54,205 nucleotides of DNA from Ilumatobacteraceae bacterium (GTDB lineage Bacteria; Actinomycetota; Acidimicrobiia; Acidimicrobiales; Ilumatobacteraceae), in NCBI GenBank assembly GCA_040263235.1, contig JBDQKN010000001.1, positions 1-54,205 of the forward strand. The letters run 5' to 3'. Positions 25,744 through 40,090 of the stretch are shown here, piece by piece. Position 1 is the stretch's first letter, and each line of letters begins with the position of its first letter. The notes under the pieces were generated by a model. The model made no database searches. It saw only the letters and a program-made list of their open reading frames with translations, and was not told the DNA's origin. A program made the position numbers and the translations under genes.

Positions 25744-26193
25744 TCACTTCGTCAGCGGAAATCCCTCACTGCCCCATGCAAGGACGCCTCCGTCGAGCTC
25801 AACGAGTGAGCTGAATCCAAGGTCGACCATCAGCGCAGTTGCAGCAGCAGACCGATTGCCGGACCGGCAGTAGACGAAATATGTGCCGGCGCGATCTAGC
25901 GCTTCAACTCTGGACTTGAAGTCAGACGATGAAATGTCAATCAGCTGGGCGCCCGCAATGTGCCCAGCTGCAAACTCCTCAGCCGTTCTGACATCAATGA
26001 TCACCGGCGAACCATCCCCAATCCGGCCAGCGAAGGTTTTTGGTGCGACCAATTCCAGGGCACCGTCCACGACGATTGCCTGATCCGGTGAGGAGGTACT
26101 CGGCGAGCTGCAAGCCGATCCAACGAGTGTGAGGCTGGCAATGACCACCGCCATCGAGGAGCAGCAAAGCGGGTTCTTCATATGTCCGGACAT
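25744..26193 (-). CDS. rhodanese-domain sulfurtransferase, predicted lipoprotein/secreted
   Basis: Signal peptide with a Cys (ASLTLVGSAC) and the rhodanese active-site loop YCRSGNRS. The alternative start, MKNPL at 26181, would place the 26182..26193 palindrome just upstream. Confidence 0.8.
   Translation of the reverse strand: MSGHMKNPLCCSSMAVVIASLTLVGSACSSPSTSSPDQAIVVDGALELVAPKTFAGRIGDGSPVIIDVRTAEEFAAGHIAGAQLIDISSSDFKSRVEALDRAGTYFVYCRSGNRSAAATALMVDLGFSSLVELDGGVLAWGSEGFPLTK
26182..26193. promoter_or_regulatory. perfect 12-bp palindrome ATGTCCGGACAT (candidate operator, site 1)
   Basis: Self-complementary as read. It lies at the rhodanese start / sulP upstream region. The same core recurs at 26219..26230 and 27961..27972. 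Confidence 0.45.
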
Positions 26194-26202
26194 TAGCCAT
26201 CG

Positions 26203-26231
26203 TTGACGACGAACTCAAATGTCCGTACATT
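26203..26231 (+). promoter_or_regulatory. candidate sulP promoter with embedded operator (site 2)
   Basis: TTGACG (26203..26208), a 17-bp spacer, then TACATT (26226..26231). ATG 26239 is 7 nt downstream, which implies a leaderless mRNA. ATGTCCGTACAT (26219..26230) overlaps the -10. Confidence 0.45.
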
Positions 26232-26238
26232 GCGACTG

Positions 26239-27954
26239 ATGTTCGCCACCCTGCCAGCCTTGCGCTGGCTCCGCCACTATGAGCGTTCTGACCTTCGCGG
26301 CGATGCCGCCGCTGGCATCACCGTTGCCGCCATGCTCGTACCCCAGGCGATGGCCTACGCCCTACTCGCAGGTCTGCCTCCCCAAGTTGGACTCTATGCG
26401 GCCACTATTCCGCTCCTCGTCTATGCCGTTCTCGGCACCAGTAGGCAACTGGCGGTGGGCCCGGTGGCAATCGTGTCGCTCCTCACAGCATCGGCACTTG
26501 CGCCAATCGCTACCGGGGAAACCAGCGCCTACATTGCGGCTGCGGCGCTCCTCGCATTGCTAGTAGGCGTCATCCATCTGGTGCTCGGAATCGCCCGTCT
26601 TGGCTGGGTGGTCAATCTGCTCTCTCACTCCGTGCTCATTGGGTTCACGGCTGCAGCGGCCGCAATCATCGGTGTTTCTCAGATCAAGCATCTGCTCGGC
26701 ATCGAGGTGCCAAGACGAGATCATGTCTACGAGACCTTGATCGACATCGCTCGGACGATGGAATCCACGCACCTAACAACGCTCGCCATCGGCCTTGGCT
26801 CTGTCGTAGCCCTCGTGTTCATGCGACGTTTCGTGCCTCGAATACCAGGAGCGCTCCTCATCGTGGTTCTCTCAACCGCAATCTCAACTCTCGCTGATCT
26901 GCCGAGCCGCGGAGTTCGAGTGGTCGGCGACATTCCTGCTGGGCTGCCCGCCTTCGCCATCCCGTCTGTTGGTGCCGGCACCATCCGCGATCTGGCCCCT
27001 ACTGCGATCGTCATCACGTTGATTGGTTTCGTTGAGTCGATTGCCGTCGCCAAGGTGTATGCGCGCCGACATCGCTACGAGATCGATCCGAATGCAGAGC
27101 TAATCGCGCTCGGTTCGGCGAATATCGCTGCTGGGCTCACGGGCGCCTATCCAGTCGGAGGTGGCTTCGCCAGAACAGCGGTGAATGACAGTGCTGGGGC
27201 CCGAACACCGATGGCAGCAGTGTTCACCGCAGCACTCGTCATCGTCGTACTAGCCATCTTCACGCCAGCATTCGAACAGCTTCCCCAAGCAGCACTGGCC
27301 GCAATCATTCTGGTCGCCGTTCGGAATCTCATCGACGTCGCAGAAATGCGCCACGTTCTCACCGTCAAGCGCACCGACGGAATCGGCATGGTCGTGGCAA
27401 CCGTGGCAACACTGGCCCTTGGCATCGAGACCGGAATAGCCATCGCAGTGATTAGTTCCATGCTGGTGGTCTTCGCCCGGATGTCGAGGCCACATACTGC
27501 GCTCCTCGGTCGAATTCCCGGAACTACGAGCTACCGAAACATCAATCGGTTCCCGGGTGCCGAGCAAGTTGACGGGATTCGCATGATTCGAATCGATGCT
27601 GCGGTGTCCTTCGTCAATGCCCAGTGGGTCAAACGCCTGTTGCTCAACGCCGCGAACGAGGAGCCCAGGCCAGAACATGTGGTCCTCGACTGCTCAGGGA
27701 TCAACGACCTCGATGCAACCGGCGCAGATGCCCTATCGGAGGTCATCGAAGAGTTCGAGTCCCTGTCAACTGCGTTCCACCTCTGCGACATCAAGGGCCC
27801 GGTCCGCGATGTGTTGCATCGTTCCGGAATCTGGGGCCGCCTTGAGGGTCGGATCCACGCCACTGCCGAGTCCGCAAGGATCATGATCGAAAAGGGCGCA
27901 CCGAACATCGACCTGAACGAATTGGGAATAGATGAACCGCGTATTGGTTCTTGA
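26239..27954 (+). CDS. SulP family inorganic anion (sulfate) permease with C-terminal STAS domain
   Basis: ORF 26203..27954. I take ATG 26239 (MFATLPALRWL...), because 26203..26231 reads as a promoter. DAAAGITVAAMLVPQAMAYALLAGLPP is the SulP signature region. STAS domain is at the C-terminus (VLDCSGINDLDATGADAL). Confidence 0.9.
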   Translation: MFATLPALRWLRHYERSDLRGDAAAGITVAAMLVPQAMAYALLAGLPPQVGLYAATIPLLVYAVLGTSRQLAVGPVAIVSLLTASALAPIATGETSAYIAAAALLALLVGVIHLVLGIARLGWVVNLLSHSVLIGFTAAAAAIIGVSQIKHLLGIEVPRRDHVYETLIDIARTMESTHLTTLAIGLGSVVALVFMRRFVPRIPGALLIVVLSTAISTLADLPSRGVRVVGDIPAGLPAFAIPSVGAGTIRDLAPTAIVITLIGFVESIAVAKVYARRHRYEIDPNAELIALGSANIAAGLTGAYPVGGGFARTAVNDSAGARTPMAAVFTAALVIVVLAIFTPAFEQLPQAALAAIILVAVRNLIDVAEMRHVLTVKRTDGIGMVVATVATLALGIETGIAIAVISSMLVVFARMSRPHTALLGRIPGTTSYRNINRFPGAEQVDGIRMIRIDAAVSFVNAQWVKRLLLNAANEEPRPEHVVLDCSGINDLDATGADALSEVIEEFESLSTAFHLCDIKGPVRDVLHRSGIWGRLEGRIHATAESARIMIEKGAPNIDLNELGIDEPRIGS

Positions 27955-27979
27955 CGACAAATGTCCGTACAACTAGCGT
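27951..27979 (+). promoter_or_regulatory. candidate promoter of the persulfide dioxygenase gene with embedded operator (site 3)
   Basis: TTGACGAC-AAATGTCCGTACA repeats the 26203 module. TTGACG (27951..27956), a 17-bp spacer, then TAGCGT (27974..27979). It overlaps the sulP stop codon (27952..27954). Confidence 0.45.
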
Positions 27980-28004
27980 TCACATACACACGAACGGAGA
28001 AGCC

Positions 28005-29384
28005 ATGAAGTTCAAGCAGTACTACCTCGAGTGTCTCTCGCACGCCTCCTATCTCATTGGAGACGAGTCATCAGGACAGGCGGTCATCATCGACCCACAG
28101 CGAGATATCGCTGACTACCTCGCAGATGCCTCCGCAGATGGCCTGACCATCACCATGGTGATCGAAACCCATTTCCACGCTGACTTCCTCTCCGGCCACC
28201 TTGAACTTGCTGCAGCCACGGGTGCAGAGATCTGTTACTCGTCGGTCGCACAGCCTGAATTTGCTCATCGCTCGATAGCCGATGGCGAGCGCGTCACTCT
28301 CGGTGATGTCGAATTGCTGTTTCTCCACACCCCTGGACACACGCCTGAGTCAATGAGCATCGTCGCGTACGCCAAGACCAACGATGAGGTGCCGTTCGGA
28401 GTTTTTACCGGAGACACCTTGTTCATTGGTGATGTCGGCCGGCCCGACCTCCTGGCATCGATTGGGTTCACGCGAGAAGAACTTGCCGAGAGTTTGTACG
28501 ACTCCCTGCACAACAAATTGATGCCACTCCCCGATTCCACACGGGTCTTCCCCGCGCATGGGGCAGGGTCAGCATGTGGAAAGAACCTGTCGACCGAACT
28601 CTCATCAACAATCGGCGAGCAGAAGGCCACGAACTACGCGCTCCGGGCCCCCGACAAGAAGACCTTCCTCGATCTCGTCACCGAGGGACAACCCCCAGCC
28701 CCCGGATACTTCGTGTATGACGCAGTGCTCAACCGCAAGGAGCGTGAACTCCTCGACGAGACGACACCGCCACAGCCGCTCACTCTCGAAGCAGCGATGA
28801 CTGCGGTCGCGAGTGGAGCGATGATGATCGATGGACGCGACCCCGAGGATTTTGCTCGTGGACATCTCGCCGGAGCGGTCAACGTCGGTATGGCGGGCCG
28901 CTACGCAGAATTCGCGGGATCCGTCATTCCCTCCGATGTCGACATCATCCTCTTCGTCGAACCGGGATACGAATTGGAAGCGAAGAACCGTTTGGCTCGC
29001 ATCGGCTTCGACCGGGTAGTCGGCGTAATCGACAACCCATACGGCACCCTGCAGGCGCACCCCGACCTCGTTCAAATTGCCAGTCGACTCACGGCAGACG
29101 GTTTCAGCGAGCGGCTTCGAAACGTCGATGGGCTTCAGATTGTCGATGTTCGAAACCCGGGTGAAGTTGAAGCGGGAATGGTGCCACAGGCCACCAACAT
29201 CCCAGTTGGGCAGCTTCCAACTCGGGCGACCGAACTCGAACCAGCCGTGCCAACCGTCGTCTACTGTGCGGGTGGATATCGGTCATCAGTCGCCGCAAGC
29301 GTGCTCCGCCAGCGAGGTTTCACCGATGTGAGTGACCTCATCGGTGGCTATGCCGCATGGGCCGAAACGACACAAACGACCTGA
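28005..29384 (+). CDS. MBL-fold persulfide dioxygenase fused to two rhodanese modules (CstB-like)
   Basis: ORF 27951..29384; ATG 28005 is preceded by GGAGA. ETHFHADFLSGH and HTPGHT are metallo-beta-lactamase motifs. The C-terminal rhodanese has the active loop YCAGGYRS. Confidence 0.85.
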   Translation: MKFKQYYLECLSHASYLIGDESSGQAVIIDPQRDIADYLADASADGLTITMVIETHFHADFLSGHLELAAATGAEICYSSVAQPEFAHRSIADGERVTLGDVELLFLHTPGHTPESMSIVAYAKTNDEVPFGVFTGDTLFIGDVGRPDLLASIGFTREELAESLYDSLHNKLMPLPDSTRVFPAHGAGSACGKNLSTELSSTIGEQKATNYALRAPDKKTFLDLVTEGQPPAPGYFVYDAVLNRKERELLDETTPPQPLTLEAAMTAVASGAMMIDGRDPEDFARGHLAGAVNVGMAGRYAEFAGSVIPSDVDIILFVEPGYELEAKNRLARIGFDRVVGVIDNPYGTLQAHPDLVQIASRLTADGFSERLRNVDGLQIVDVRNPGEVEAGMVPQATNIPVGQLPTRATELEPAVPTVVYCAGGYRSSVAASVLRQRGFTDVSDLIGGYAAWAETTQTT

Positions 29385-29471
29385 GCGCCACAATGCTCGG
29401 CGGAGGGGGCCCTGCCGAGGATCAAGACGAGAACAACAGAGCAAGCAACAACGAATCTTCTGGGGGAGACC

Positions 29472-30662
29472 ATGAAACACCGCATCGTGATCATTGGAGG
29501 TGGCTCAGCGGGAATCACCGTTGCGGCTCGACTGGCACGCAAAGGCGAATCCGATATCGCCGTCGTGGAACCCTCTGATAAGCACTACTACCAACCCCTG
29601 TGGACGTTGGTTGGTGGAGGAAAGTCCGTAGCTACAGCCACAGAGCGCAACGAAGCCTCGGTCATGCCAAAGGGCGTCACCTGGATCCGCAAGGCCGCTG
29701 CATCATTCCACCCAAACGACAACGCAGTTGAGATGGCTGACGGAACTCGGGTGGAGTACGACGCCCTAATCGTCTGTCCTGGCATTCAGCTCGACTGGGA
29801 TGAGATGCCTGGGCTCACCGAAACCCTCGGACAATCCGGGGTGTCGTCGAACTACCGCTTTGACCTCGCACCCAAGACCTGGGAATTCATCAGGGGCCTC
29901 ACGTCTGGGTCGGCCGTGTTCACCATGCCCGTTGGCCCAATCAAATGCGCAGGTGCGCCTCAGAAGATTGCGTACTTGGCAGCCGATCACTGGCGCCGAG
30001 AGGGGGTGCTTGGCAACATCGATGTTCACCTCGTGCTTCCCACTCCCCGAACATTTGGCATTCCGGCAATCGCTGACCAGCTTGACAAAGTCGTGTCGAG
30101 TTATGGCATCAACCTTCACCTCGCGTCAGAGGTGACCGCCATCGATTCGACGAACGGCTCGATGACGGTCAGCTCGACGAGTGGAGACGGGGCATCCACC
30201 ACCCTCGATTACGACATGGCACACATCACTCCAAGGCAGTCAGCTCCGGATTGGATCAAGTCGAGTCCATTGTCAACCGGAGACGCAAAGGGTTACGTCG
30301 AGGTCGACAAATTTACGATGCAGCATGTCCGTCACCCGAACGTCTTTGCGTTAGGCGACGCTGGTTCCACACCGAATTCGAAGACGGGTGCAGCAATTCG
30401 CAAGCAAGCACCGGTGGTTGTGGCGAATCTTCTTGATCATCTCAACGGACGTCAACTCTCGGCAACCTACGACGGCTATGCCTCCTGCCCAATCGTGACC
30501 TCAGATCACGAGATGCTGCTGGCCGAATTCAACTACGACCTTGAACTCACGCCATCATTTCCAATCATCGATCAGGTCAAACCTCGCCGAGACATGTGGT
30601 ATCTGAAGAAGTACGGACTTCCGTTCATCTACTGGAACCTCATGCTCAAAGGCCTCGCCTGA
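29472..30662 (+). CDS. sqr: sulfide:quinone oxidoreductase, type II (SQRDL-like)
   Basis: IVIIGGGSAGITVAA (FAD fold), PIKCAGAPQKIAYL and YASCPIV carry the conserved redox cysteines of type II SQR. Preceded by GGGGGAGA. Confidence 0.85.
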   Translation: MKHRIVIIGGGSAGITVAARLARKGESDIAVVEPSDKHYYQPLWTLVGGGKSVATATERNEASVMPKGVTWIRKAAASFHPNDNAVEMADGTRVEYDALIVCPGIQLDWDEMPGLTETLGQSGVSSNYRFDLAPKTWEFIRGLTSGSAVFTMPVGPIKCAGAPQKIAYLAADHWRREGVLGNIDVHLVLPTPRTFGIPAIADQLDKVVSSYGINLHLASEVTAIDSTNGSMTVSSTSGDGASTTLDYDMAHITPRQSAPDWIKSSPLSTGDAKGYVEVDKFTMQHVRHPNVFALGDAGSTPNSKTGAAIRKQAPVVVANLLDHLNGRQLSATYDGYASCPIVTSDHEMLLAEFNYDLELTPSFPIIDQVKPRRDMWYLKKYGLPFIYWNLMLKGLA

Positions 30663-30698
30663 TCTGATGCATCATTCTCACCCAAACAGGGAGGTCCT

Positions 30699-32222
30699 AT
30701 GACTCGCCTCGGATTCGTTCTCGCCAGCGATTCGTGTATCGGCTGCCACGCCTGCACAGTCGCGTGTAAGAGCGAACATGACGTCCCCCTTGGGGTCAAC
30801 CGCACATGGGTGAAGTACGTCGAAACTGGAAGTTTCCCGAACACTGGTCGGTCCTTCACGGTGATGCGCTGCAATCAGTGCGAGGACGCCCCGTGCGTCA
30901 CCATCTGCCCGACGAGCGCCCTCCATAAGGCAAGCAACGGCGTCGTCGACTTCGACGACTCGCGATGTATCGGATGTAAGGCGTGCATGAACGCGTGCCC
31001 GTACGACGCTCTCTACATCAACCCAGCTACCAACACGGCCCACAAGTGCAACTTCTGTAATCACCGGGTTGAGGTGGGCCTCGAACCCGCTTGCGTCGTC
31101 GTCTGCCCCACCCACGCGATCATCACCGGAGATCTCGATGATCCAACCTCCGAGATCTCCAAGATCGTCGCCCGCGACAAGGTCTCAGTTCGGGCCCCAG
31201 AACAAGGCACCAATCCCAAGGTCTTCTATCGGGGTGTCGATCAGGCAGCCCTAGACCCAACCAGAAGTCGAATTGCTGACGACGGCATGATCTGGGCAGA
31301 TACAACCCCCGATCACCCGACTATCTCGCCCGTCATGGCAGAGCACTCTGGCAATGGCGTAATCGGGCGTACTGCCTACACGACGAGCCATCCCATGACC
31401 TGGAAATCGAAGGTCTCTGGATATCTCGTCACCAAGGCGATCGCCGCCGGCGTGATGGGAATCGCTGCATTGCTTGTTGTTCTCGGACACGGAGGCTCAA
31501 GCAGTGCCGTGGGCATTCTCCCGGCGGTCGTCGCTGGGCTTTTCATTGCCATTACTGGAGTGCTGCTCATCGCTGACCTCAAACAACCGAAACGATTCCT
31601 GTACATCCTCACCAAGTCCAACACTGATTCCTGGCTCGTTAGGGGGGCCTGGATTCTCGGCGCATTTGCTGCGGTCACCGGGCTGTGGGGACTCCTCGAT
31701 CTACTCGGAGCAGAGGGCGCATATCCGTGGCTTGCGCTCCCACAAGTGGTGCTCGCCGCAGGAGTTGCCGGATACACCGCATTTCTATTCGGGCAATGTG
31801 AGGGTCGGGATCTCTGGCAGACCCCGCTGCTGCTGCCGACTCTGCTTGCTCAAGCGGTCGTCGCTGGAGGTTCCACCTATGGCGTGTTGGACCTCGTTAT
31901 CGACGTACCCGATCAGTCGGCCGTGCGAATTGCAACTCTCGGAGGTCTCGGAGCACTCACACTCCTCATCGGTACAGAGTTGGTCTCCCACGGTTCGCGT
32001 TCTGTCGAACTGGCTACTCTCGAGATGACTCGAGGTGCATATGCACGGCGCTTTTGGGCTGGCGGGGTGGCCCTCGGACTGTTAGCCCCGATCGTCATCT
32101 TGGCCACACCTGCCGGATCGACATCGGTTGGAACATCACTTGCGGGGGCCTGCGCTCTCGTGGGCCTCTTCGCCTACGAGGATGCCTACGTTCGCGCTGG
32201 CCAGTCAGTGCCCCTGTCCTGA
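30699..32222 (+). CDS. fusion of a four-[4Fe-4S] ferredoxin subunit (PsrB/SoeB/DmsB-like) with an NrfD/PsrC-type membrane anchor
   Basis: The N-terminal 190 aa or so carry CIGCHACTVAC, CNQCEDAPCVTICP, CIGCKACMNACP and CNFCNHR...ACVVVCP. The C-terminal 300 aa or so are a run of hydrophobic helices (NrfD-like). No signal or Tat motif. Confidence 0.85.
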   Translation: MTRLGFVLASDSCIGCHACTVACKSEHDVPLGVNRTWVKYVETGSFPNTGRSFTVMRCNQCEDAPCVTICPTSALHKASNGVVDFDDSRCIGCKACMNACPYDALYINPATNTAHKCNFCNHRVEVGLEPACVVVCPTHAIITGDLDDPTSEISKIVARDKVSVRAPEQGTNPKVFYRGVDQAALDPTRSRIADDGMIWADTTPDHPTISPVMAEHSGNGVIGRTAYTTSHPMTWKSKVSGYLVTKAIAAGVMGIAALLVVLGHGGSSSAVGILPAVVAGLFIAITGVLLIADLKQPKRFLYILTKSNTDSWLVRGAWILGAFAAVTGLWGLLDLLGAEGAYPWLALPQVVLAAGVAGYTAFLFGQCEGRDLWQTPLLLPTLLAQAVVAGGSTYGVLDLVIDVPDQSAVRIATLGGLGALTLLIGTELVSHGSRSVELATLEMTRGAYARRFWAGGVALGLLAPIVILATPAGSTSVGTSLAGACALVGLFAYEDAYVRAGQSVPLS

Positions 32223-32250
32223 TTGACGACGTAACACAAGGAACGATTCC

Positions 32251-35064
32251 ATGACACTGATCAATCATCCGCCATACGAGCGCTGGCACGACTGGACTGA
32301 ACTCGACGCCAAGGCGTGGCCAGAACGCGTCGAACGTCACTATGCCCTCGTGCCAACAACCTGCTTCAACTGTGAAGCAGCCTGTGGCCTTGTCGCCTTC
32401 ATCGATAAAGAAAGTGGCACTATCACCAAGTTCGAAGGAAACCCTGAACATCCAGCGAGCCGCGGACGCAATTGTGCAAAAGGTCCTGCCACCATCAACC
32501 AGGTCAACGACCCCGAGCGCATCCTCCATCCACTTCGGCGAGTTGGCGAACGCGGATCAGGGAATTGGGAGCGCATTTCGTGGGATGAGGCTCTCGAGGC
32601 AATCGGCGCTCGGATCAGAACTGCTATCACCGAGGGACGCGGCAACGAGGTCATGTACCACGTCGGTCGGCCGGGTGAAGATGGCTACACCGAACGTGTG
32701 CTTTCAGCCTGGGGGGTCGATGGCCACAACTCTCACACCAACATCTGTTCATCGAATGCGAGGATCGGATATCAGTCATGGATGGGCCTCGATCGCCCGT
32801 CATCTGATTTTGCAAACGCCGAGGTCATCTTCTTGATCTCGTCGCATCTCGAGGCAGGCCACTACTTCAACCCACATGCCCAACGGATCATCGAGGGCCA
32901 AGCGGCGGGGGCGACCGTCATCTGTGTCGATCCGCGCCTCTCGAACACTGGAGCGAAGGCAGATCATTGGCTTGCGCCTTGGCCAGGAACAGAAGCATTC
33001 ATGCTCCTCGCCATCGCCCGACTCCTCATTGAGAACGGCACGTGGGACCGCGAGTTCGTCCGTCGGTGGGTGAACTGGGAAACGTATCTCACCGAAACGC
33101 GACCCGATCTCCCGTGCGAGTTCGCATCGCTCGAACAGGCGCTCCTCGACGCCTACTCGGAGTACACGCCCGAACAGGCTGAATACATCTGCGGAATCGA
33201 TGCGACGCAGTTGCGCGAAATCGCCGGAATCATCGGCAAGCACCTCTCTAAGTTCGCATCACATAACTGGCGTTCTGCCGGTGCCGGCAATCTCGGTGGT
33301 TGGCAGGTGGCACGGTGCCTCTTCTTTATCAATGTGCTCACCGGCTCAGTTGGCACCCCCGGCGGAACCAGCGGCAACGGTTGGAATAAGTTCACCCCGG
33401 CACCGCCGAAAGGTGGGCAGCCGATCAAGGAATGGAACGAGATGAATTGGCCGGTGGAGTACCCACTGGCCTACCACGAACTGTCGATTCTGCTCCCCCA
33501 CTTCCTCAATGAAGGACGAGGCCGCCTCGACACGTATTTCACCCGCGTCTACAACCCGATCTGGACCAATCCAGATGGCTTCAGCTGGTTGGAAGCGCTG
33601 AGCGATACCGACAAGGTTGGGTGCCACGTTGCGCTCACGCCGACCTGGTCCGAAACAGCATGGTTTGCCGACTACGTGCTCCCCATGGGAATCGGATCGG
33701 AACGCCATGACATTGCGAGTTACGAGACCCACGCCGGACGTTGGATCGGCTTCCGTCAACCAGTGATGCGGCGCTACGCCGAGCTCAACGGCGAAGATGT
33801 GGGTCCCGATAACCGAACACACGAATACAACATGGGCGAAGTGTGGGAGGAGAACGAATTTTGGGTTGATCTTTCATGGCGGATCGACCCCGACGGCGAG
33901 CTCGGTATCCGCCAGTACTTCGAGAGCGACGAGCGGCCCGGAACCCCTATGGGCGTCGATGAGTACTACGGCCGGATGTTCGCTGAAAGCGTTCCCGGCC
34001 TCGCCGAAGCAGCAGCAGCAGCGAATCAATCGCCCCTCGAGTACATGAGGGACAGAGGCGCCTATGCCGTGCCTGGAGATCCCTATCGCCCCTACGAGCG
34101 GCCGGTTGACCCCTCAGCAATCGACGGCTGCGTGCGCGATGAGTCAGGCGTGTACCGCAAGCCAAATACGGAGGGCACCTGGGACGGTTCAAAGGAGTCC
34201 TTGCAAGAGCTTCACCTCGCAAAACTCGGTGACGGCTCACCCGCCGTTGAAGTCGACGGGGAACTGAAGGAGGGGTTCCCAACCCCTTCGAAGAAGCTGG
34301 AGCTGTTCTCCTCAACGCTGAAAGATTGGGGTTGGCCCGAGTACGCGACGCCCACATGGATCCCGTCACATGTTCACTGGGAAGACCTCGACCTTGAGGG
34401 CGATGAGCGCATCCTGCTCCCGACCTTCCGGATCCCCACGCTCATCCACACCCGCTCAGCAAACTCAAAATGGCTGAACGAAATCTCGCACCGACATCCC
34501 CTATGGGTCCATCCAAGTGATGCTGAACGACTCGGCATCGCCGAGAACGGACTTGTTCGCGTCACTACTCGCATCGGTCATTTCGTGATCTCAGCGTGGC
34601 GAACCGAGGGCATCAGACCAGGGGTCGTAGCCGCTTCTCACCACATGGGCCGCTGGCGGCTCGAAGATGCGAAGGCCCGCTCGTGGGGGGCGGGTCTAGC
34701 CAAAATCAGCAATGAGGGCTCGCAGTGGACCCTGAACCGATCGAAGGGGATGAACGCCTACGAGTCGAGCGACCCAGACACTGAACGCATCTGGTGGAAC
34801 GACACCGGTGTTCACCAGAACCTCACCTTCGCTGTGCAGCCTGATCCAATTTCTGGGATGCAGTGTTGGCATCAGCGAGTCAAGGTTGGACCAGCCCAAG
34901 TCGGAGATGAGTACGGAGACGTTGTCGTCGATACCGAGAAGTCACGCGAGGCCTACCTCGACTGGCTCTCCAAGACACGGCCAGCGCCGGGTCCACATGG
35001 CCTGCGGCGACCGATGTGGTACGCCAGGCCGCTCAAGCCAGTCCCTGAGGCCTATCTTCTCTGA
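32251..35064 (+). CDS. molybdopterin (bis-MGD) oxidoreductase catalytic subunit, no Tat signal (SoeA-like candidate)
   Basis: 937 aa. N-terminal CFNCEAACG...RNCAKG is the C-x2-C-x3-C...C FS0 motif. No RRxF(L/V)K precedes it (MTLINHPPYERWHDW...). Length and order fit DMSO-reductase-family catalytic subunits. Confidence 0.9.
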   Translation: MTLINHPPYERWHDWTELDAKAWPERVERHYALVPTTCFNCEAACGLVAFIDKESGTITKFEGNPEHPASRGRNCAKGPATINQVNDPERILHPLRRVGERGSGNWERISWDEALEAIGARIRTAITEGRGNEVMYHVGRPGEDGYTERVLSAWGVDGHNSHTNICSSNARIGYQSWMGLDRPSSDFANAEVIFLISSHLEAGHYFNPHAQRIIEGQAAGATVICVDPRLSNTGAKADHWLAPWPGTEAFMLLAIARLLIENGTWDREFVRRWVNWETYLTETRPDLPCEFASLEQALLDAYSEYTPEQAEYICGIDATQLREIAGIIGKHLSKFASHNWRSAGAGNLGGWQVARCLFFINVLTGSVGTPGGTSGNGWNKFTPAPPKGGQPIKEWNEMNWPVEYPLAYHELSILLPHFLNEGRGRLDTYFTRVYNPIWTNPDGFSWLEALSDTDKVGCHVALTPTWSETAWFADYVLPMGIGSERHDIASYETHAGRWIGFRQPVMRRYAELNGEDVGPDNRTHEYNMGEVWEENEFWVDLSWRIDPDGELGIRQYFESDERPGTPMGVDEYYGRMFAESVPGLAEAAAAANQSPLEYMRDRGAYAVPGDPYRPYERPVDPSAIDGCVRDESGVYRKPNTEGTWDGSKESLQELHLAKLGDGSPAVEVDGELKEGFPTPSKKLELFSSTLKDWGWPEYATPTWIPSHVHWEDLDLEGDERILLPTFRIPTLIHTRSANSKWLNEISHRHPLWVHPSDAERLGIAENGLVRVTTRIGHFVISAWRTEGIRPGVVAASHHMGRWRLEDAKARSWGAGLAKISNEGSQWTLNRSKGMNAYESSDPDTERIWWNDTGVHQNLTFAVQPDPISGMQCWHQRVKVGPAQVGDEYGDVVVDTEKSREAYLDWLSKTRPAPGPHGLRRPMWYARPLKPVPEAYLL

Positions 35065-35088
35065 GACCCGACGATCCAAGGAGCCCAA

Positions 35089-35901
35089 ATGGGCACGACC
35101 GGAACCACCACGTTTGACATCGACGGCTTCCCTCTTGACCGGGAGGGAGCCGACCCCCTCTGGCTGCAACTGGAGCGGGAACTTCGACGTCGACTCGCCC
35201 TCGGACATTTTGTCGATCGATTCCCCACCGACCGCGAATTGATGCAGGTGTATGGCGTGAGTCGCCATACCGCTCGGCATGCCGTTGATCGGCTCGGCAG
35301 CGATGGAATCGTTCGACGCTCGCGCGGTATTGGCACTTCCGTGGACAATGACCGGATCGAACAATCGCTCGGGTCGCTGTACAGCCTCTTTCAGGTCGTT
35401 GAGGCCGCCGGAATCGAGCAGGAGAGCGTCGTGCTCGCTCTCGAGGTGACCACCGACAGTGCGGCTGCATCCCACCTCAATGTTGCGCCAGAAACAGCCT
35501 TGGTTCACCTCTCTCGCCTGCGGCTAGCCGGGGGCGATCCACTTGCACTCGACCGAGCGTGGATGCCCGCCTCAATTGCTAGCGATCTCCTCGGTTTGGA
35601 TTTCTCTCGGACCTCGCTCTACGACGAGCTGGAGCGTTGCACCGGAAGGCGCCCCACCGCTGGGCGTGAACAGATACGCGCCGTGGTCCCAGAACCCGAG
35701 GAGCGTCGCGTCCTTGGGATCGAAACCTCCGACGCCGTTTTCTGCATCAACAGGCTGGGTCTCTCAGATGGCGTTGAGATCGAATGGCGCACCACGCTGA
35801 TCAGGAGCGATCGATTTTCATTCGTTGCCGACTGGACCGTTGGCCAACGCTCCGAGCTACGCCCAGAGCACCGGCCAATAGTTTCGACTGACCGCCGATG
35901 A
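35089..35901 (+). CDS. GntR family transcriptional regulator (HutC/UTRA subfamily)
   Basis: FPTDRELMQVYGVSRHTARHAVDRLGSDGIVRRSRGIGTSV (GntR wHTH) plus a C-terminal domain of about 170 aa of UTRA type. AAGGAG RBS at 35078..35083. Confidence 0.85.
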   Translation: MGTTGTTTFDIDGFPLDREGADPLWLQLERELRRRLALGHFVDRFPTDRELMQVYGVSRHTARHAVDRLGSDGIVRRSRGIGTSVDNDRIEQSLGSLYSLFQVVEAAGIEQESVVLALEVTTDSAAASHLNVAPETALVHLSRLRLAGGDPLALDRAWMPASIASDLLGLDFSRTSLYDELERCTGRRPTAGREQIRAVVPEPEERRVLGIETSDAVFCINRLGLSDGVEIEWRTTLIRSDRFSFVADWTVGQRSELRPEHRPIVSTDRR

Positions 35902-35918: not shown

Positions 35919-37121
35919 ATGAGCAACACCTCACGTCCCTCAGGCCGCGACGTCGTCATCGTTGATGCCCTGCGCTCCCCGATCGGTCGCCGCAACGGCG
36001 GTCTGGCGGGGGTCCATCCTGCCCGACTACTCGGTTCAATCCAGAGCGCCCTCGTCGAACGGAGCGGCATTGATCCCAACGAGATCGAACAGGTTGTCGG
36101 GGGATGCGTCAGCCAAGTTGGGGAGCAGAGTTTCAACGTCACCAGAACCGCCTGGCTTGCGGCCGGCCTACCAATCTCAACGGCGGCGACGACCGTCGAC
36201 ACCCAGTGCGGCTCTAGTCAGCAGGCCACGAACCTCGCCACGTCGCTCATCGCAGGCGGCACCGTCGATGTGGCGATGGCATGTGGAGTCGAGGTCATGA
36301 GCCGGATCCCCATCGGAATCAACTCTTCCAAGAAGTTGGGGCTCGGCGTACCAATTCCCAAGGAGTACTTCGCTCGCCTTGAGATGACATCGCAATTCGA
36401 GGGTGCTGAGCGAATCGCGGAACAATGGGGCGTTACCCGCGCCGACACCGATGCCTTCGGCCTCGAGTCGCAGAGACGTGCGGCTCAGGCCTGGAATGAG
36501 GACCGCTTCGCTGGACAGTGGATTCCAATTGAAGCCCCGGTTCTCGATGCCGAGGGTTCGCCGACCGATGAATTCCAGACCATCTCTCGAGACGAGGGCA
36601 TCCGTGACACATCCCTCGAGAAGCTCTCACAACTCAAGCCCGTCGCTAGAGAGAACGGCGTCCACACGGCAGGCAACTCCTCTCAGATCTCTGATGGAGC
36701 GTCAGCGGTCCTCATGATGACTGCGGAACGAGCCGAGGAACTCGGACTGACTCCCCGCGCGAGGGTGGTCGACACCTGCATTGTCGGGGTTGATCCGGTT
36801 CTCATGCTCACCGGCCCAATGGACGCAACAAAGCGGCTCCTTTCTCGAAGCGGACTCAACATCGATGACATTGACACGTTCGAGATCAATGAAGCCTTCG
36901 CATCGGTTGTCCTGGCTTGGGCCAAGGAGGTCGGTGCCGATCTCTCCAAGACCAATCCCAACGGTGGAGCAATTGCGCTCGGCCACCCACTTGGTGCCAC
37001 CGGGGCGTTCCTCATGACCAAGGCGCTCTACGAACTCGAACGAACCTCGGGCCGCTATGGCCTCATCTCGATGTGCTGTGGCGGGGGCCTTGGCACGGGA
37101 ACCCTGATCGAACGAATCTGA
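35919..37121 (+). CDS. acetyl-CoA C-acyltransferase (thiolase)
   Basis: VDTQCGSSQQA (active Cys), NPNGGAIALGHPLGATG and CCGGGLG are thiolase signatures. Confidence 0.9.
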   Translation: MSNTSRPSGRDVVIVDALRSPIGRRNGGLAGVHPARLLGSIQSALVERSGIDPNEIEQVVGGCVSQVGEQSFNVTRTAWLAAGLPISTAATTVDTQCGSSQQATNLATSLIAGGTVDVAMACGVEVMSRIPIGINSSKKLGLGVPIPKEYFARLEMTSQFEGAERIAEQWGVTRADTDAFGLESQRRAAQAWNEDRFAGQWIPIEAPVLDAEGSPTDEFQTISRDEGIRDTSLEKLSQLKPVARENGVHTAGNSSQISDGASAVLMMTAERAEELGLTPRARVVDTCIVGVDPVLMLTGPMDATKRLLSRSGLNIDDIDTFEINEAFASVVLAWAKEVGADLSKTNPNGGAIALGHPLGATGAFLMTKALYELERTSGRYGLISMCCGGGLGTGTLIERI

Positions 37122-37609
37122 GTTCGTCTCTTTTCCTCAGCACACTGCTGACTGCATCCCTCCTAGTTCAGGGGTGCAGCCAAGATGAACTGCCATCGTC
37201 GGTCACGGCAGTGGTTGAGTACATAGTCGATGGCGACACCATCGACGTCATGGTCAATGGGTCGATTGAACGGGTGAGACTGATCGGCATCGACACCCCC
37301 GAGATCGCTCATGGATCGGAACCTGCTGACTGCGGCGGAGAGGAGGCAACGCGGTTTCTCGCTCGAAACCTGCCGATTGGGACTCCGGTGGTGATCTCTC
37401 GCGATGTGGTCGCCCGGGACCATTACGGACGCCTGCTGGGCTACATCACTCGTGCTACCGATGAGGTCAGTGTGAATCTGCTCCTCGCTGCCGCAGGGTA
37501 TGCCCGCCCCCTGAGCATCACGCCAAACGTCAAACTTGCATCTGAGATCGCCGATGCATATTCGATCGCCCGCCGTGAACGAGTCGGAATCTGGGGATCC
37601 TGCCCCTAG
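37073..37609 (+). CDS. thermonuclease (SNase) family lipoprotein
   Basis: ORF 36917..37609 overlaps the thiolase gene. The only plausible start is GTG 37073 (VLWRGPWHG...LLTASLLVQGC lipobox-like). VDGDTIDV and RLIGIDTPE are SNase motifs. The start is uncertain. Confidence 0.7.
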   Translation: MLWRGPWHGNPDRTNLSSSLFLSTLLTASLLVQGCSQDELPSSVTAVVEYIVDGDTIDVMVNGSIERVRLIGIDTPEIAHGSEPADCGGEEATRFLARNLPIGTPVVISRDVVARDHYGRLLGYITRATDEVSVNLLLAAAGYARPLSITPNVKLASEIADAYSIARRERVGIWGSCP

Positions 37610-37615
37610 GACTCA

Positions 37616-38467
37616 ATGCGTAATAGGTTCTGGCAGGTGAGCGAACTCGCAGAACGACTGGGACTCGGCGCTGATGGGCGGGCTCTGATCGTGTCCTGCG
37701 ATGACCTCGGGCTCTCGCACGGGTCGAACATCGGGGTGCTGAGCGCACTCCACGAGGGCGATGCGACATGTGCGTCAATCATGGTGCCAGCTCCGTGGGC
37801 CAGACATGCCGCAACCCTGACACATCCAGGCGATGACATCGGCGTTCACCTCACACTCAACGCCGAACACGCCATGTATCGCTGGGGACCGCTCACCCAT
37901 TCGCCATCCCTCCTGTCGGGAGATGGCGGGTTTCCAGCGACCATTGATGACCTGTGGGAACACGCTGACCCTGACGAGGTTCACCGAGAACTGCGCGCGC
38001 AGATCACACGAGCAACAGCCTGGGGCCTCGACGTCACTCACCTCGCTCCCCATCTGAGCGCCATCACGCTTCGCCCAGAGTTCTTCGATATCTATCTCGG
38101 ATTGGCGGTTGAGTTCGCACTCCCCATCCGGCTCCCGTCAACCGTGTCCGCCGCTGGAGCCGGATTTCCATTCCGGAAACTTGCCGCAGATGAGGGCGTC
38201 ATATTCCCCGATCACTTCGATCACGACTGGCGACCCGGATCGAGGCAGCGCGTGACTGAGGCGTTGGCGAATTTGCCCGCTGGTGTCACCGAGATACACC
38301 TACAGCCTGCGATAGATACCGAAGAAGTGAGAGCCCTCAGCGATGCAGCACCGGGGTGGATCGACGACCTCAACCTCCTCATGAGCGGTGAGATCACACA
38401 ATTAGCCACAGCAGCAGGCGTGACCGTGCTTGGCTATCGGCCACTCAGAGATCTGATGCGAGCTTGA
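37616..38467 (+). CDS. ChbG/HpnK (YdjC) family carbohydrate deacetylase
   Basis: LIVSCDDLGLSHGSNIGV and GVHLTLNAEH are YdjC-family motifs. Confidence 0.75.
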   Translation: MRNRFWQVSELAERLGLGADGRALIVSCDDLGLSHGSNIGVLSALHEGDATCASIMVPAPWARHAATLTHPGDDIGVHLTLNAEHAMYRWGPLTHSPSLLSGDGGFPATIDDLWEHADPDEVHRELRAQITRATAWGLDVTHLAPHLSAITLRPEFFDIYLGLAVEFALPIRLPSTVSAAGAGFPFRKLAADEGVIFPDHFDHDWRPGSRQRVTEALANLPAGVTEIHLQPAIDTEEVRALSDAAPGWIDDLNLLMSGEITQLATAAGVTVLGYRPLRDLMRA

Positions 38468-38687
38468 TCAACTCTGCCCGAGCAGAGCCATCTGACAGCA
38501 CGGTGAACAATATTCCGGTGTGGCCGGACGCCTTCAGGCGTCCCCGCATGTACTCAGCAGTTGGGTCGAAACCTTCGGCCCCTACCACGGCGATTGGCAC
38601 CGACACCACGAGAACTGCCCCATCGGGACCAGAGACTCGTTCGTCACCCTTGGCCACGACGACCCGATACTGAACCTCAGCGGACAT
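38445..38687 (-). CDS. small SCP2-like protein (80 aa), tentative
   Basis: Only the last 80 codons of ORF 38445..39167 lie outside mca. MSAEVQYRV...AEYMRGRLKASGHTGILFTVL resembles the SCP2 sterol-carrier C-terminal pattern (G-x-L-K-x-x-G). The ATG at 38687 overlaps the mca end by 11 nt. Confidence 0.4.
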   Translation of the reverse strand: MSAEVQYRVVVAKGDERVSGPDGAVLVVSVPIAVVGAEGFDPTAEYMRGRLKASGHTGILFTVLSDGSARAELIKLASDL

Positions 38688-39573
38688 CTGCGATCGCTGC
38701 CCAGGTCGTTCGCTCGAGGAGATCGGTCTCGTGCGAGGAAGGATCGGCATCACCGACACGAGAAGCGGCCAACACCCAGTCTTCGGTCGGATAGGTCCGG
38801 GCAAGTTCGTCCTCGTCGAGACCGAACCAGAAGAGTTCCTCTGGGTTGACTTGAGTCGCGTGGGCGCGAAGAGCGCCGGTTCGGGCCCACATGTAGTCGC
38901 GAACATCAACCCGGGTGGTGATGCGATCGTCCTGACCAGGCCGGTCGAACCAATGCTCTTCAAAAGGGGATCTCCCGTGCTTGTCGAGAAGAGCCTGATG
39001 CACAGCCAGCATGCGGTCTCGCGACCATACCGAGTAGTACAACTTCGAAATCTCGTGCGCCGCCCCCAGATCCTGGCGATGCGAGGGATCTGCTGCTCGG
39101 TCAAATGCAACAACCGAGATCTCGTGAACTCGGAGGTGGTCTGGATGCGGGTAGCCAGACTGCTCATCGGAGTACGTGATCAACACATCAGGGCGATGGA
39201 CACGGATAAGACGAACGAGCCGGTCAACCGCTTCATCGAGGTCCGCCATGTGAAAGCAATCTGGGTGTGAATTGGCGGGAGAATCAGCCATACCTGAGTC
39301 TCGGTATCCGAGCATCTCAATCGTGCCAAAACCTATGACGGCAGCCGATTCCGCCAATTCTCGGGGACGCACCGACGCTAAGAGATCGCGCTCCTGACCT
39401 TCATCGAGGCCGTGGAACGGTTGGCCTGGCTCTCGCAGAGATGGATTCTGCAGATCGCCCTCTTCGCCACCGGTGCAGCAAACCAACACGGTCCGGCACC
39501 CTTGCGCCGCATACCGGGCAAGCGTCGGGGCCCCCTTCGACGCCTCGTCATCGGGGTGCGCATGCACCGTCAT
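38677..39573 (-). CDS. mca: mycothiol S-conjugate amidase
   Basis: MTVHAHPDDEASKGAPTLARY, GYPHPDH, KLYY, ALRAHATQ and YPTEDWVLA closely follow Mca as I remember the M. tuberculosis protein. The upstream 125 codons of ORF 38677..39948 are R/S/P-rich and rejected. An alternative GTG start exists at 39615. Confidence 0.85.
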   Translation of the reverse strand: MTVHAHPDDEASKGAPTLARYAAQGCRTVLVCCTGGEEGDLQNPSLREPGQPFHGLDEGQERDLLASVRPRELAESAAVIGFGTIEMLGYRDSGMADSPANSHPDCFHMADLDEAVDRLVRLIRVHRPDVLITYSDEQSGYPHPDHLRVHEISVVAFDRAADPSHRQDLGAAHEISKLYYSVWSRDRMLAVHQALLDKHGRSPFEEHWFDRPGQDDRITTRVDVRDYMWARTGALRAHATQVNPEELFWFGLDEDELARTYPTEDWVLAASRVGDADPSSHETDLLERTTWAAIADVR

Positions 39574-39644
39574 GATGGTTGGGCTGTCGGCGGTCTCACG
39601 TGGGTGCCCGGTCACCTTCCCGAGGCTAGCGGTAGCCTGACAGG

Positions 39645-39788
39645 GTGCGCCGGACGCTGCCGTTGGGCCTTCTGCTGATTCTCTCTGGACTGGTCGTCGC
39701 GTGCGATACCGGCGATGGTCGGGAGATGAAGGTGCCCTCGGTCCCGTATGTCGCACCCACTGACCCGCCATCGACATCCGCCCCATGA
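39645..39788 (+). CDS. small predicted lipoprotein (47 aa), not in the ORF track
   Basis: Hand translation from GTG 39645 gives VRRTLPLGLLLILSGLVVACDTGDGREMKVPSVPYVAPTDPPSTSAP*. It has a positive n-region, a hydrophobic core and the lipobox LVVAC. By hand count 34 of 47 third positions are G/C. Its TGA overlaps the ATG of the DUF971 gene (ATGA 39785..39788). Confidence 0.35.
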   Translation: MRRTLPLGLLLILSGLVVACDTGDGREMKVPSVPYVAPTDPPSTSAP

Positions 39789-40090
39789 ACCACCCGAGCC
39801 TGACACCAGCACGGATCGAAGTGAGCCGCACCAGCGGTATCAGCGTCGAGTTTGAGGACGGGTCGACGGTGATGGCGTCAGCATCTCGACTCCGAGAGCA
39901 ATGCCCCTGCGCAGACTGCCGAGGAATACGAGAGCGCGGAGTGGTCATCGCCTCGGAAGCGATCTCGATAATCGATGCTGAACTTCATGGCGCGCTCGGT
40001 CTCGCACTGACGTGGAGCGATGGACATGGAACCGGCATCCACTCATGGGGCCTTATCCGTGAGCTTGGGGAGCCCAGCGCGCGCCAGTGA
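39785..40090 (+). CDS. DUF971 domain protein
   Basis: 101 aa; LREQCPCADCRG ... LTWSDGHGTGIHSWGLIRELG matches the DUF971 (gamma-butyrobetaine-hydroxylase N-terminal-like) pattern. Confidence 0.75.
   Translation: MNHPSLTPARIEVSRTSGISVEFEDGSTVMASASRLREQCPCADCRGIRERGVVIASEAISIIDAELHGALGLALTWSDGHGTGIHSWGLIRELGEPSARQ

Follow-up and report, generated by a model that had tools for sequence, protein, structure and literature searches.

Positions 25,744 to 35,901 of contig JBDQKN010000001.1 (assembly GCA_040263235.1, Ilumatobacteraceae bacterium) carry a cluster of seven genes, in which a type II sulfide:quinone oxidoreductase (SQR) and a CstB-like persulfide dioxygenase (PDO) lie beside a molybdenum (Mo) enzyme complex. 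The whole stretch analysed, 54,205 nucleotides of this contig, is referred to here as the window. The Mo complex is encoded by two genes, one for a fusion of an iron-sulfur (FeS) module with an NrfD membrane anchor, and one for the catalytic Mo subunit. On comparative grounds we lean slightly towards the view that it is a new sulfite:quinone oxidoreductase, facing the cytoplasm and distinct from the SoeABC family. The argument for a sulfite step comes from the predicted orientation of the complex, its intact cofactor motifs and its recurrent gene neighbourhood, and not from membership of a known family. A first-pass annotation of this DNA had read the cluster as one pathway from sulfide to sulfate, ending in a Soe-like enzyme. 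That interpretation is partly supported: the idea of the pathway survives, but the family assignment does not.

Orientation and family placement of the molybdenum complex

Neither protein of the pair carries an export signal. The Mo subunit begins MTLINHPPYERWHDW, with no twin-arginine (Tat) motif, and the fusion has neither a signal peptide nor an RR motif. Within the fusion the FeS module is N-terminal to NrfD: a four-cluster 4Fe-4S module occupies approximately residues 1–200, and is followed by an eight-helix quinone-interacting anchor at approximately residues 235–507. The Pfam domain PF03916 spans residues 230–493, and the anchor is of the haem-free NrfD/PsrC type. Loops rich in K and R at residues 292–318 and 427–451 fit an N-in topology. 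Because both proteins lack a Tat or other signal, and the loops follow the positive-inside pattern, the sequences are consistent with a complex on the cytoplasmic face of the membrane, as had been proposed. The Mo subunit has the FS0 [4Fe-4S] motif C38-x2-C41-x3-C45...C75, and Cys166 is its predicted metal ligand. In an alignment, the FS0 cysteines and the predicted Cys ligand are kept throughout the core family.

Some members of the wider clade differ in these features. The predicted Mo-ligand Cys is lost from P0123, P0125 and P0160, and P0125 is also without part of the FS0 motif; they may represent paralogues that are non-catalytic or use another ligand. P0129 and P0190 (approximately 1115–1123 residues) and P0160 (915 residues) belong to the same clade and have twin-arginine signals, together with an N-terminal extension of the 'YPPFEKW' type. 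The clade therefore includes both periplasm- and cytoplasm-facing forms, which would be a natural orientation switch.

SoeABC reference sequences were taken from plasmid operons of Azospirillum argentinense and Paraburkholderia graminis. The Azospirillum operon encodes SoeA of 998, SoeB of 251 and SoeC of 314 residues, and adjoins xsc. It is validated as a reference by relatives of its SoeA at 70–72% identity, which carry the KO-based JGI name 'sulfite dehydrogenase (quinone) subunit SoeA'. This name is absent from the 120 closest relatives of the window Mo subunit. Other replicons were rejected as sources of SoeA: the Mo enzymes of Thioclava p4 and Phaeobacter pP66_c are unrelated, and the operon of Azoarcus KH32C is Psr-like, of the Tat type, and includes TorD.

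By blastp, the window Mo subunit is 22.9% identical to Azospirillum SoeA (140 bits), and it scores 114 bits against P. graminis SoeA and 139 bits against E. coli PhsA. Tat-exported Psr-like proteins match it over the full length at 27–30% identity, with 280–380 bits. In a bootstrapped neighbour-joining tree of 33 sequences, built without A. vinosum and Aquifex SoeA, TtrA, SrrA and SreA, the Mo subunit falls in a clade of its own (bootstrap 99), apart from SoeA, and this clade is at best a weak sister (bootstrap 51) of the Psr-like clade. NCBIfam gives no match above cutoff for the Mo subunit and apparently contains no SoeA model. The best matches below threshold are to the PhsA model NF012032 (189 bits against a cutoff of 694) and to PsrA (2vpw, 1e-33), and the Fdh, Arr, Nar and Nap models all score far below their cutoffs.

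The FeS module shares 48% identity with a Psr-like FeS subunit and 36–39% with SoeB. For the NrfD part, Psr-type NrfD proteins give E values of 2e-16 and 1e-10, and SoeC one of 0.09, which is not significant. Azospirillum SoeC is a PF04976 (DmsC) protein, whereas the anchor in the window is a PF03916 (NrfD) domain; it forms one polypeptide with the FeS module, and its gene lies 5' of the Mo gene. The Psr-like representatives P0175, P0219 and Azoarcus L019 all bear an RRxF[LIV]K motif, and the window Mo subunit has none. Judged from these comparisons, the Mo complex is not of the SoeABC family, with which it would have in common only the general plan and the cytoplasmic orientation; it is placed in a separate clade, neither SoeA nor inside Psr/Phs. 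The Soe-like label of the first-pass annotation has to be given up, since each part of the complex (Mo subunit, FeS module and anchor) resembles Psr/Phs-type proteins more closely than SoeA, SoeB and SoeC, respectively. The same annotation had held that clustering with polysulfide or thiosulfate reductases would speak against its reading. Taken literally this is where the enzyme lies, yet it really forms a clade of its own.

The likeness to SoeABC (A. vinosum, Aquifex aeolicus, R. pomeroyi; K21307-9) is thus one of architecture. Both are membrane-bound complex iron-sulfur molybdoenzymes that lack a Tat signal and have the catalytic side cytoplasmic (predicted, for the window complex). In each the catalytic subunit has an FS0 cluster and a predicted Cys ligand, the FeS relay consists of four clusters, and the eight-helix anchor is free of haem. 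Both also adjoin sulfite producers, which are Xsc (in locus L037, below) and PDO (in many loci) for the window family, and Xsc for Azospirillum soeABC. They differ in the catalytic subunit, which is approximately 23% identical and of another clade, in the NrfD anchor and its fusion to the FeS module, and in the gene order, which is (BC)-A in the window. They differ also in range: the window family is found in Actinomycetota, Chloroflexota, Acidobacteriota, Gemmatimonadota and haloarchaea, whereas SoeC, in a survey based on KEGG, was confined to Proteobacteria, Aquificae and a few Clostridia (PMC8076601).

PsrABC and PhsABC (T. thermophilus 2VPZ; Salmonella/E. coli Phs) provide the best matches for all three modules, and share the NrfD-type anchor (PsrC), the Cys ligand and the sulfur context. 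However, these enzymes are Tat-exported and periplasmic, whereas the window complex is signal-less and predicted to face the cytoplasm, and its scores are far under the thresholds. In addition, the window Mo subunit is longer by approximately 170 residues and has a conserved N-terminal 'YPPxExWxDW' extension, and its family occurs in aerobic heterotrophs beside an O2-dependent PDO.

Distribution and gene neighbourhoods of the pair

A scan of GTDB, with one genome per species, gave at least 595 confirmed relatives of the Mo subunit, and the neighbourhood counts given here refer to the best 80 of these at least 595. These 80 are 57–80% identical to the window Mo subunit and come from Acidimicrobiia, Chloroflexota, Acidobacteriota, Gemmatimonadota, Planctomycetota, Binatia, Dormibacterota and Micrococcales. 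Across the Acidimicrobiia homologues the Mo subunit is 75–92% identical, and the names of close homologues point to a host near Ilumatobacteraceae. Replicons that carry orthologues at 50–58% identity come from Rhodococcus jostii RHA1, Thermomicrobium roseum and several haloarchaea (plasmids). In every locus with a recovered upstream flank, the FeS-NrfD gene lies immediately 5' of the Mo gene. Unrelated genes surround the pair in locus L010 and in abundant Acidimicrobiia of marine origin (79% identity). The pair is therefore a separable, independent two-gene module, which occurs alone in the marine relatives, in taurine clusters and with other partners, and for this reason the claim that all seven genes form one pathway is too strong. 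A literature search, with most subscription journals outside its coverage, found no description of the function of the family.

Gene content at the 80 loci was assessed with a selected protein panel by tblastn, so that neighbours outside the panel are partly covered. A PDO, of the CstB type or of the rhodanese-metallo-β-lactamase (Rhd-MBL) type, is near the pair in 24 of the 80 loci; for the 44 loci that have full flanks the figure is 17. We estimate the chance of finding a PDO within 20 kb in a 4-Mb genome at approximately 0.5%. Its position relative to the pair varies (upstream, downstream or divergent), and the loci come from several phyla. A GntR homologue is near the pair in 11 of the 80 loci, SulP in nine, taurine-catabolism genes in five and SQR in two, and DsrE and TusA adjoin it in nine. 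On the basis of Pfam identity, a NarJ/TorD-like maturation chaperone is near the pair in 18 loci, and YeeE/YedE half-proteins flank it in five.

The most informative neighbourhood is a taurine locus of an Acidimicrobiales genome (L037, OY762975.1), which reads tauA-tauB-tauC-pta-TetR-FeSNrfD-Mo-xsc, with xsc directly 3' of Mo. Its Xsc (sulfoacetaldehyde acetyltransferase) reaches 995 bits, above the TIGR03457 cutoff of 676. Taurine clusters with the pair are found in five Acidimicrobiales/Microthrix species (L036, L037, L038, L039 and L042), and have in common a Tpa-like class-III aminotransferase, TauABC, a phosphotransacetylase (Pta) and TetR, followed by FeS-NrfD and Mo. In Halomicrococcus the order is Rhd-MBL, a TauE sulfite exporter, FeS-NrfD, Mo, MobA and an anion permease, and in Thermomicrobium roseum a CsoR/CstR-family repressor is directly 5' of the pair. 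The neighbours PDO, Xsc and TauE share only sulfite, which is their common denominator. The proposal that a sulfite-oxidising step follows the PDO thus draws support from the comparative context, at the level of gene neighbourhood.

Plasmid pRHL3 of R. jostii RHA1 has the order DsrE-TusA-FeSNrfD-Mo-Mrp, with a divergent set of Rhd-MBL, two DUF202 genes, ArsR, a CstB-like PDO and TrxA. A second unit, with ArsR, an MBL-fold (PDO-like) protein and a major facilitator superfamily (MFS) transporter, lies 3 kb 3' of the Mo complex (L011, 14372–17802), and pRHL3 would therefore hold two persulfide-type modules around the Mo genes.

A PF02613 chaperone of approximately 280 residues is encoded just 3' of Mo in L056, L060, L062, L067–L071, L073, L083–L086, L089, L092, L094, L095 and L103, these loci being mostly outside Acidimicrobiia. 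A NarJ/TorD-like chaperone after the Mo gene is to be expected if the enzyme is cofactor-loaded and catalytic. By tblastn there is none anywhere in the 54-kb window, so that the maturation factor would be encoded elsewhere or dispensed with.

Several further observations concern single groups of loci. In five loci of Acidobacteriota (L081, L082, L088, L098 and L104; Pyrinomonadaceae and related), Mo and PDO are followed by a DUF445 membrane protein of approximately 520 residues; in L062, L067, L070, L073 and L095 a DUF445 gene is 3' of Mo, with no PDO detected by the tblastn panel. The DUF445 protein is a candidate for an additional component. A plasmid of Sulfurovum mangrovi (L018, 8001–11139) has a 38%-identical homologue, seen as a two-piece match with no annotated coding sequence between nrfD and TorD chaperone genes, which may be selenocysteine-containing or frameshifted. 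Finally, a protein identical to the window Mo subunit is present in a crustacean metagenome (SRR3138948, L008). In fiddler-crab gills Ilumatobacter is dominant, and genes for SQR and 'psrA' are enriched (PMC10463870). The window may come from a host-associated lineage of this crab-gill type.

The sulfur gene cluster in the window

Domains in the window proteins were called from Pfam, NCBIfam and PDB sequence searches. The seven open reading frames (ORFs) lie exactly at the coordinates first assigned, and the searches confirm all the domain calls, including those of the type II SQR and the CstB-like PDO (Table 1). The motifs KCAGAPQK, HFHADFLSGH and CAGGYRS are all present in the window translations.

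Table 1 Features of the cluster, in window coordinates
Feature	Position	Strand	Evidence and remarks
Rhodanese, single domain, hydrophobic signal-like N-terminus	25744..26193	-	PF00581 4.6e-19; divergent from the rest of the cluster
Sigma-70-like promoter match TTGACG-17-TACATT	26203..26231	+	just 5' of the probable SulP start at 26239; weak hint
SulP anion permease with C-terminal STAS	26239..27954 (ORF open from 26203)	+	PF00916 2.1e-113; PF01740 1.4e-16; TIGR00815 486.6 against a cutoff of 380.45
CstB-like PDO	28005..29384 (ORF open from 27951)	+	metallo-β-lactamase (MBL) and two rhodanese stretches (Pfam); PDB matches
Type II (mitochondrial-type) SQR	29472..30662	+	human SQOR match
4Fe-4S/NrfD fusion	30699..32222	+	PF13247 8.7e-23; PF03916 1.1e-19
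Catalytic Mo/W-bis(molybdopterin guanine dinucleotide) subunit, 937 residues	32251..35064	+	PF04879, PF00384, PF01568
GntR/HutC-type regulator, winged helix-turn-helix (HTH) and UTRA ligand domain	35089..35901	+	PF00392 and PF07702

On identical contigs, public annotation starts SulP (26239, 571 residues), the PDO (28005, 459 residues) and the rhodanese (MAVV, 136 residues) at internal positions. The true start of the rhodanese is likely to be internal to the 149-residue ORF, at MKNPL... or MAVV.... The promoter match in Table 1 is the only one in the 13.6 kb scanned, where 3.6 would be expected from shuffled sequences. A scan for terminators found five terminator-like sites against 8.6 expected, all of them within genes.

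The order SulP...PDO-SQR-FeS/NrfD-Mo-GntR is kept in the relatives L001 and L009, whose Mo subunit is 80% identical, and because the same order recurs the clustering is not due to chance. The full arrangement, SulP-(carbonic anhydrase)-(rhodanese/YgaP)-PDO-SQR-FeSNrfD-Mo-GntR-thiolase-SNase-YdjC, is confined to close relatives. Genes 3' of the cluster (35919–39948) encode a thiolase, an SNase-like nuclease, YdjC and a PIG-L/MshB-like deacetylase, with spacing and synteny equal to those of the sulfur genes. Since thiolase, SNase and YdjC are as closely packed and as syntenic, and have no link to sulfur, tight spacing is weak evidence for membership of an operon. The PIG-L protein is the sole hint in the window of the mycothiol-type chemistry that the first-pass annotation had assumed.

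The PDO has its best PDB matches to 3tp9 (9.2e-96, residues 11–471) and to S. aureus CstB (3r2u, 1.4e-66). An MBL domain with an ETHE1-like Fe site (metal motif HFHADF) is followed by a middle pseudo-rhodanese without the loop Cys, and then by a C-terminal catalytic rhodanese with its active-site Cys in the CAGGYRS loop, which is the layout of the CstB type. The SQR matches human mitochondrial SQOR (6oi5/6mo6) at 2.9e-95 over residues 3–394, its full length, and type I SQR at approximately 1e-7; it is assigned to type II because the former match far exceeds the latter. The catalytic contexts of Cys159 and Cys349 are both present (KCAGAPQK and YASCPIV).

The divergent rhodanese had been described as a secreted lipoprotein. 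Secretion is plausible from its N-terminus, but the residues before the Cys, V-G-S-A-C, do not match a classical lipobox. SulP belongs to an anion-permease family, as annotated, but sulfate is no more than a candidate substrate: relatives have a β-carbonic anhydrase gene next after SulP, a pairing that elsewhere suggests bicarbonate transport and makes the substrate uncertain. This is the arrangement in L001 (2483–5467) and L009 (1614–4650), where SulP is followed by the β-carbonic anhydrase (Pro_CA) and a membrane-anchored YgaP-like rhodanese with transmembrane segments. The window has neither of these two genes, and carries the divergent signal-bearing rhodanese in their place. A triad of SulP, rhodanese (YgaP) and PDO is found in L001, L009, L035, L048, L055 and L084.

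No sulfide sensor of the ArsR, CstR or SqrR type had been noted in the cluster, and this holds: tblastn of the window at 1e-8 with the T. roseum CsoR-like protein and the RHA1 ArsR gives no match, and the GntR/UTRA protein is the sole regulator adjoining the cluster. In 11 further Acidimicrobiia loci the Mo pair adjoins a GntR homologue of 41–54% identity, placed upstream, downstream or divergently, and with no thiolase. From this recurrence, GntR/UTRA probably regulates the Mo pair or the cluster in Acidimicrobiia. We reject its assignment to a downstream thiolase operon, since its homologues accompany the pair in these 11 thiolase-free loci, and a role as a thiol-based persulfide sensor, since no Cys is conserved among the homologues. 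A ligand-binding mode is therefore likelier than a thiol switch. In L009 (1–86) an ArsR-family (HTH_5) gene is situated approximately 1.5 kb 5' of SulP, with a class-III aminotransferase in between. It has no equivalent in the window, and could be a thiol-based sensor of the type absent from the window cluster.

In its core the cluster resembles the cst operon of S. aureus (cstR-cstA-cstB-sqr, tauE) and the sqr-pdo operons of heterotrophs, with a type II SQR beside a CstB-type PDO with two rhodaneses, an accessory rhodanese, an anion transporter, and a presumed role in detoxification of sulfide or reactive sulfur. It differs from them in the absence of CstA and of a CstR, BigR, SqrR or FisR sensor, and in having SulP for TauE and a regulator of the GntR/HutC type. 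It differs also in the respiratory Mo complex linked on its 3' side, a linkage that we have not found described in the literature.

A proposed route, its alternatives and its significance

The best explanation of the cluster, from sequence comparison, is a cytoplasmic route for the detoxification and oxidation of sulfide and sulfane sulfur. By strong homology, the type II SQR would oxidise H2S, passing two electrons to the quinone pool and the sulfane sulfur onto a thiol acceptor; the CstB-like PDO would use O2 to convert the persulfide to sulfite, with thiosulfate as a possible product via its rhodanese domain; and the rhodaneses would shuttle sulfane sulfur. At the Mo centre sulfite would be oxidised to sulfate, and two electrons would pass through FS0 and the four FeS clusters to (mena)quinone at the NrfD module. 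The complex would then be a functional analogue of SoeABC, of independent origin within the Psr-like branch of the DMSO-reductase superfamily. More speculatively, SulP or another carrier may export the product anion, and GntR/UTRA may control the Mo genes through a small-molecule ligand and not through thiol chemistry. The first-pass annotation had called the module fully quinone-coupled, which it is not, because the PDO step consumes O2.

The pair itself would be a general sulfite-handling module, recruited here beside sqr and pdo, and elsewhere beside taurine/xsc or DsrE/TusA genes. We give roughly even weight for and against the wider proposal, that FeS-NrfD and the Tat-less Mo subunit make up an unrecognised family of cytoplasm-facing sulfite:(mena)quinone oxidoreductases in many phyla, derived from Psr-like reductases independently of SoeABC, and governed in Acidimicrobiia by GntR/UTRA through sensing of a sulfur metabolite.

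Several points weigh against a sulfite oxidoreductase. Its nearest sequence relatives are Tat-exported Psr/Phs-like reductases and not sulfite dehydrogenases, approximately half of the 44 loci with full flanks have no nearby sulfur gene, and DsrE and TusA as neighbours fit a sulfane-sulfur or thiosulfonate substrate equally well. Shen et al. are said to have found in 2015 that enzymes of the CstB type give thiosulfate, and not free sulfite. The tree was made by neighbour-joining from 33 sequences, with reference families missing. In metatranscriptomes of crab-gill Ilumatobacter there are SQR transcripts but no 'psrA' (PMC10463870), which speaks against co-expression with sqr if K08352 covers the Mo gene, a link that is unconfirmed.

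Some of these observations would also suit a cytoplasm-facing Psr/Phs-type enzyme that acts on sulfane sulfur or thiosulfate and, with SQR and PDO, controls sulfane-sulfur levels. Such an enzyme might use quinol to reduce polysulfide, persulfide or thiosulfate, or might act as an oxidoreductase on thiosulfate or on protein-bound thiosulfonate delivered by TusA, DsrE or a rhodanese. PsrA and PhsA are indeed the closest characterised relatives, the FeS and NrfD modules are also Psr-like, DsrE and TusA adjoin the pair in RHA1 as well as in the nine loci counted above, and CstB-type PDOs reportedly form thiosulfate. Even SoeABC of R. pomeroyi has been reported to be more important for thiosulfate than for sulfite (bioRxiv 10.1101/2022.12.07.519552). 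We nevertheless consider such an enzyme rather unlikely. The taurine/xsc/pta clusters (L036–L039 and L042) involve sulfite only, and no sulfane sulfur or thiosulfate; TauE adjoins the pair in Halomicrococcus; and all the family scores are far under the curated cutoffs, including that for PhsA. Moreover, reduction of thiosulfate by quinol is endergonic, and PhsABC can tap the proton-motive force only through a site that faces outward.

It is improbable that the substrate contains no sulfur (formate, arsenite, selenate, nitrate or an organic compound) and that proximity to sqr and pdo is inherited synteny without functional meaning. The name 'formate dehydrogenase' does occur among the NCBI and UniRef names of relatives, and the loci without a sulfur neighbour, the pair amid unrelated genes in marine relatives and L010, and the equal synteny of thiolase, SNase and YdjC are all compatible with this. 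However, sulfur or sulfite neighbours are found independently, and in differing gene orders, in Actinomycetota, Chloroflexota, Acidobacteriota, Binatia and haloarchaea, and the Fdh, Arr, Nar and Nap scores are far too low. Least credible by a long way is a true member of the SoeABC family in which B and C have merely fused. The cytoplasmic orientation, the lack of Tat, FS0, the Cys ligand and the plan of Mo subunit, FeS protein and anchor would all be shared, but the score against SoeA is no better than that against PhsA and far under the Psr-like scores, the tree gives a separate clade, the anchor is NrfD and not DmsC, with no significant similarity to SoeC, and the gene order is BC-A and not ABC. 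The JGI name also sets the relatives of the Azospirillum reference apart from those of the window protein.

The concept of a pathway from sulfide to sulfate is not itself new, because oxidation by SQR, PDO and SoeABC in a heterotroph has been tested genetically in Ruegeria pomeroyi (bioRxiv 10.1101/2022.12.07.519552). A study of North Sea blooms singled out Acidimicrobiia and Ilumatobacter for the use of taurine and sulfonates, and named no Soe or sulfite dehydrogenase for them (bioRxiv 10.1101/2024.12.10.627767). SQR-PDO clusters are well known, and the new part appears to be the family of the Mo enzyme.

Sulfite is toxic, and large amounts of it arise from the action of persulfide dioxygenases and from the degradation of taurine, isethionate, 2,3-dihydroxypropane-1-sulfonate (DHPS) and alkanesulfonates. 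Annotation pipelines label members of the Mo family as polysulfide reductase (psrA, K08352, the link to which is unconfirmed), formate dehydrogenase or generic molybdopterin oxidoreductase. If they are sulfite:quinone oxidoreductases, tallies of 'polysulfide or thiosulfate reduction potential' in metagenomes that use K08352-like assignments may partly count an oxidative enzyme. Rhodococcus jostii RHA1, which has the pair on pRHL3, is a genetically tractable carrier. If the sulfite proposal is true, the family would supply the 'missing' sulfite dehydrogenase in Actinomycetota, Chloroflexota, Acidobacteriota, Gemmatimonadota and haloarchaea. It would give heterotrophic oxidation of sulfide and organosulfonates two more respiratory electrons per sulfur atom, and would fill in a missing step of aerobic sulfur cycling in soils and oceans, in symbionts of sponges and crabs, and in hypersaline systems.

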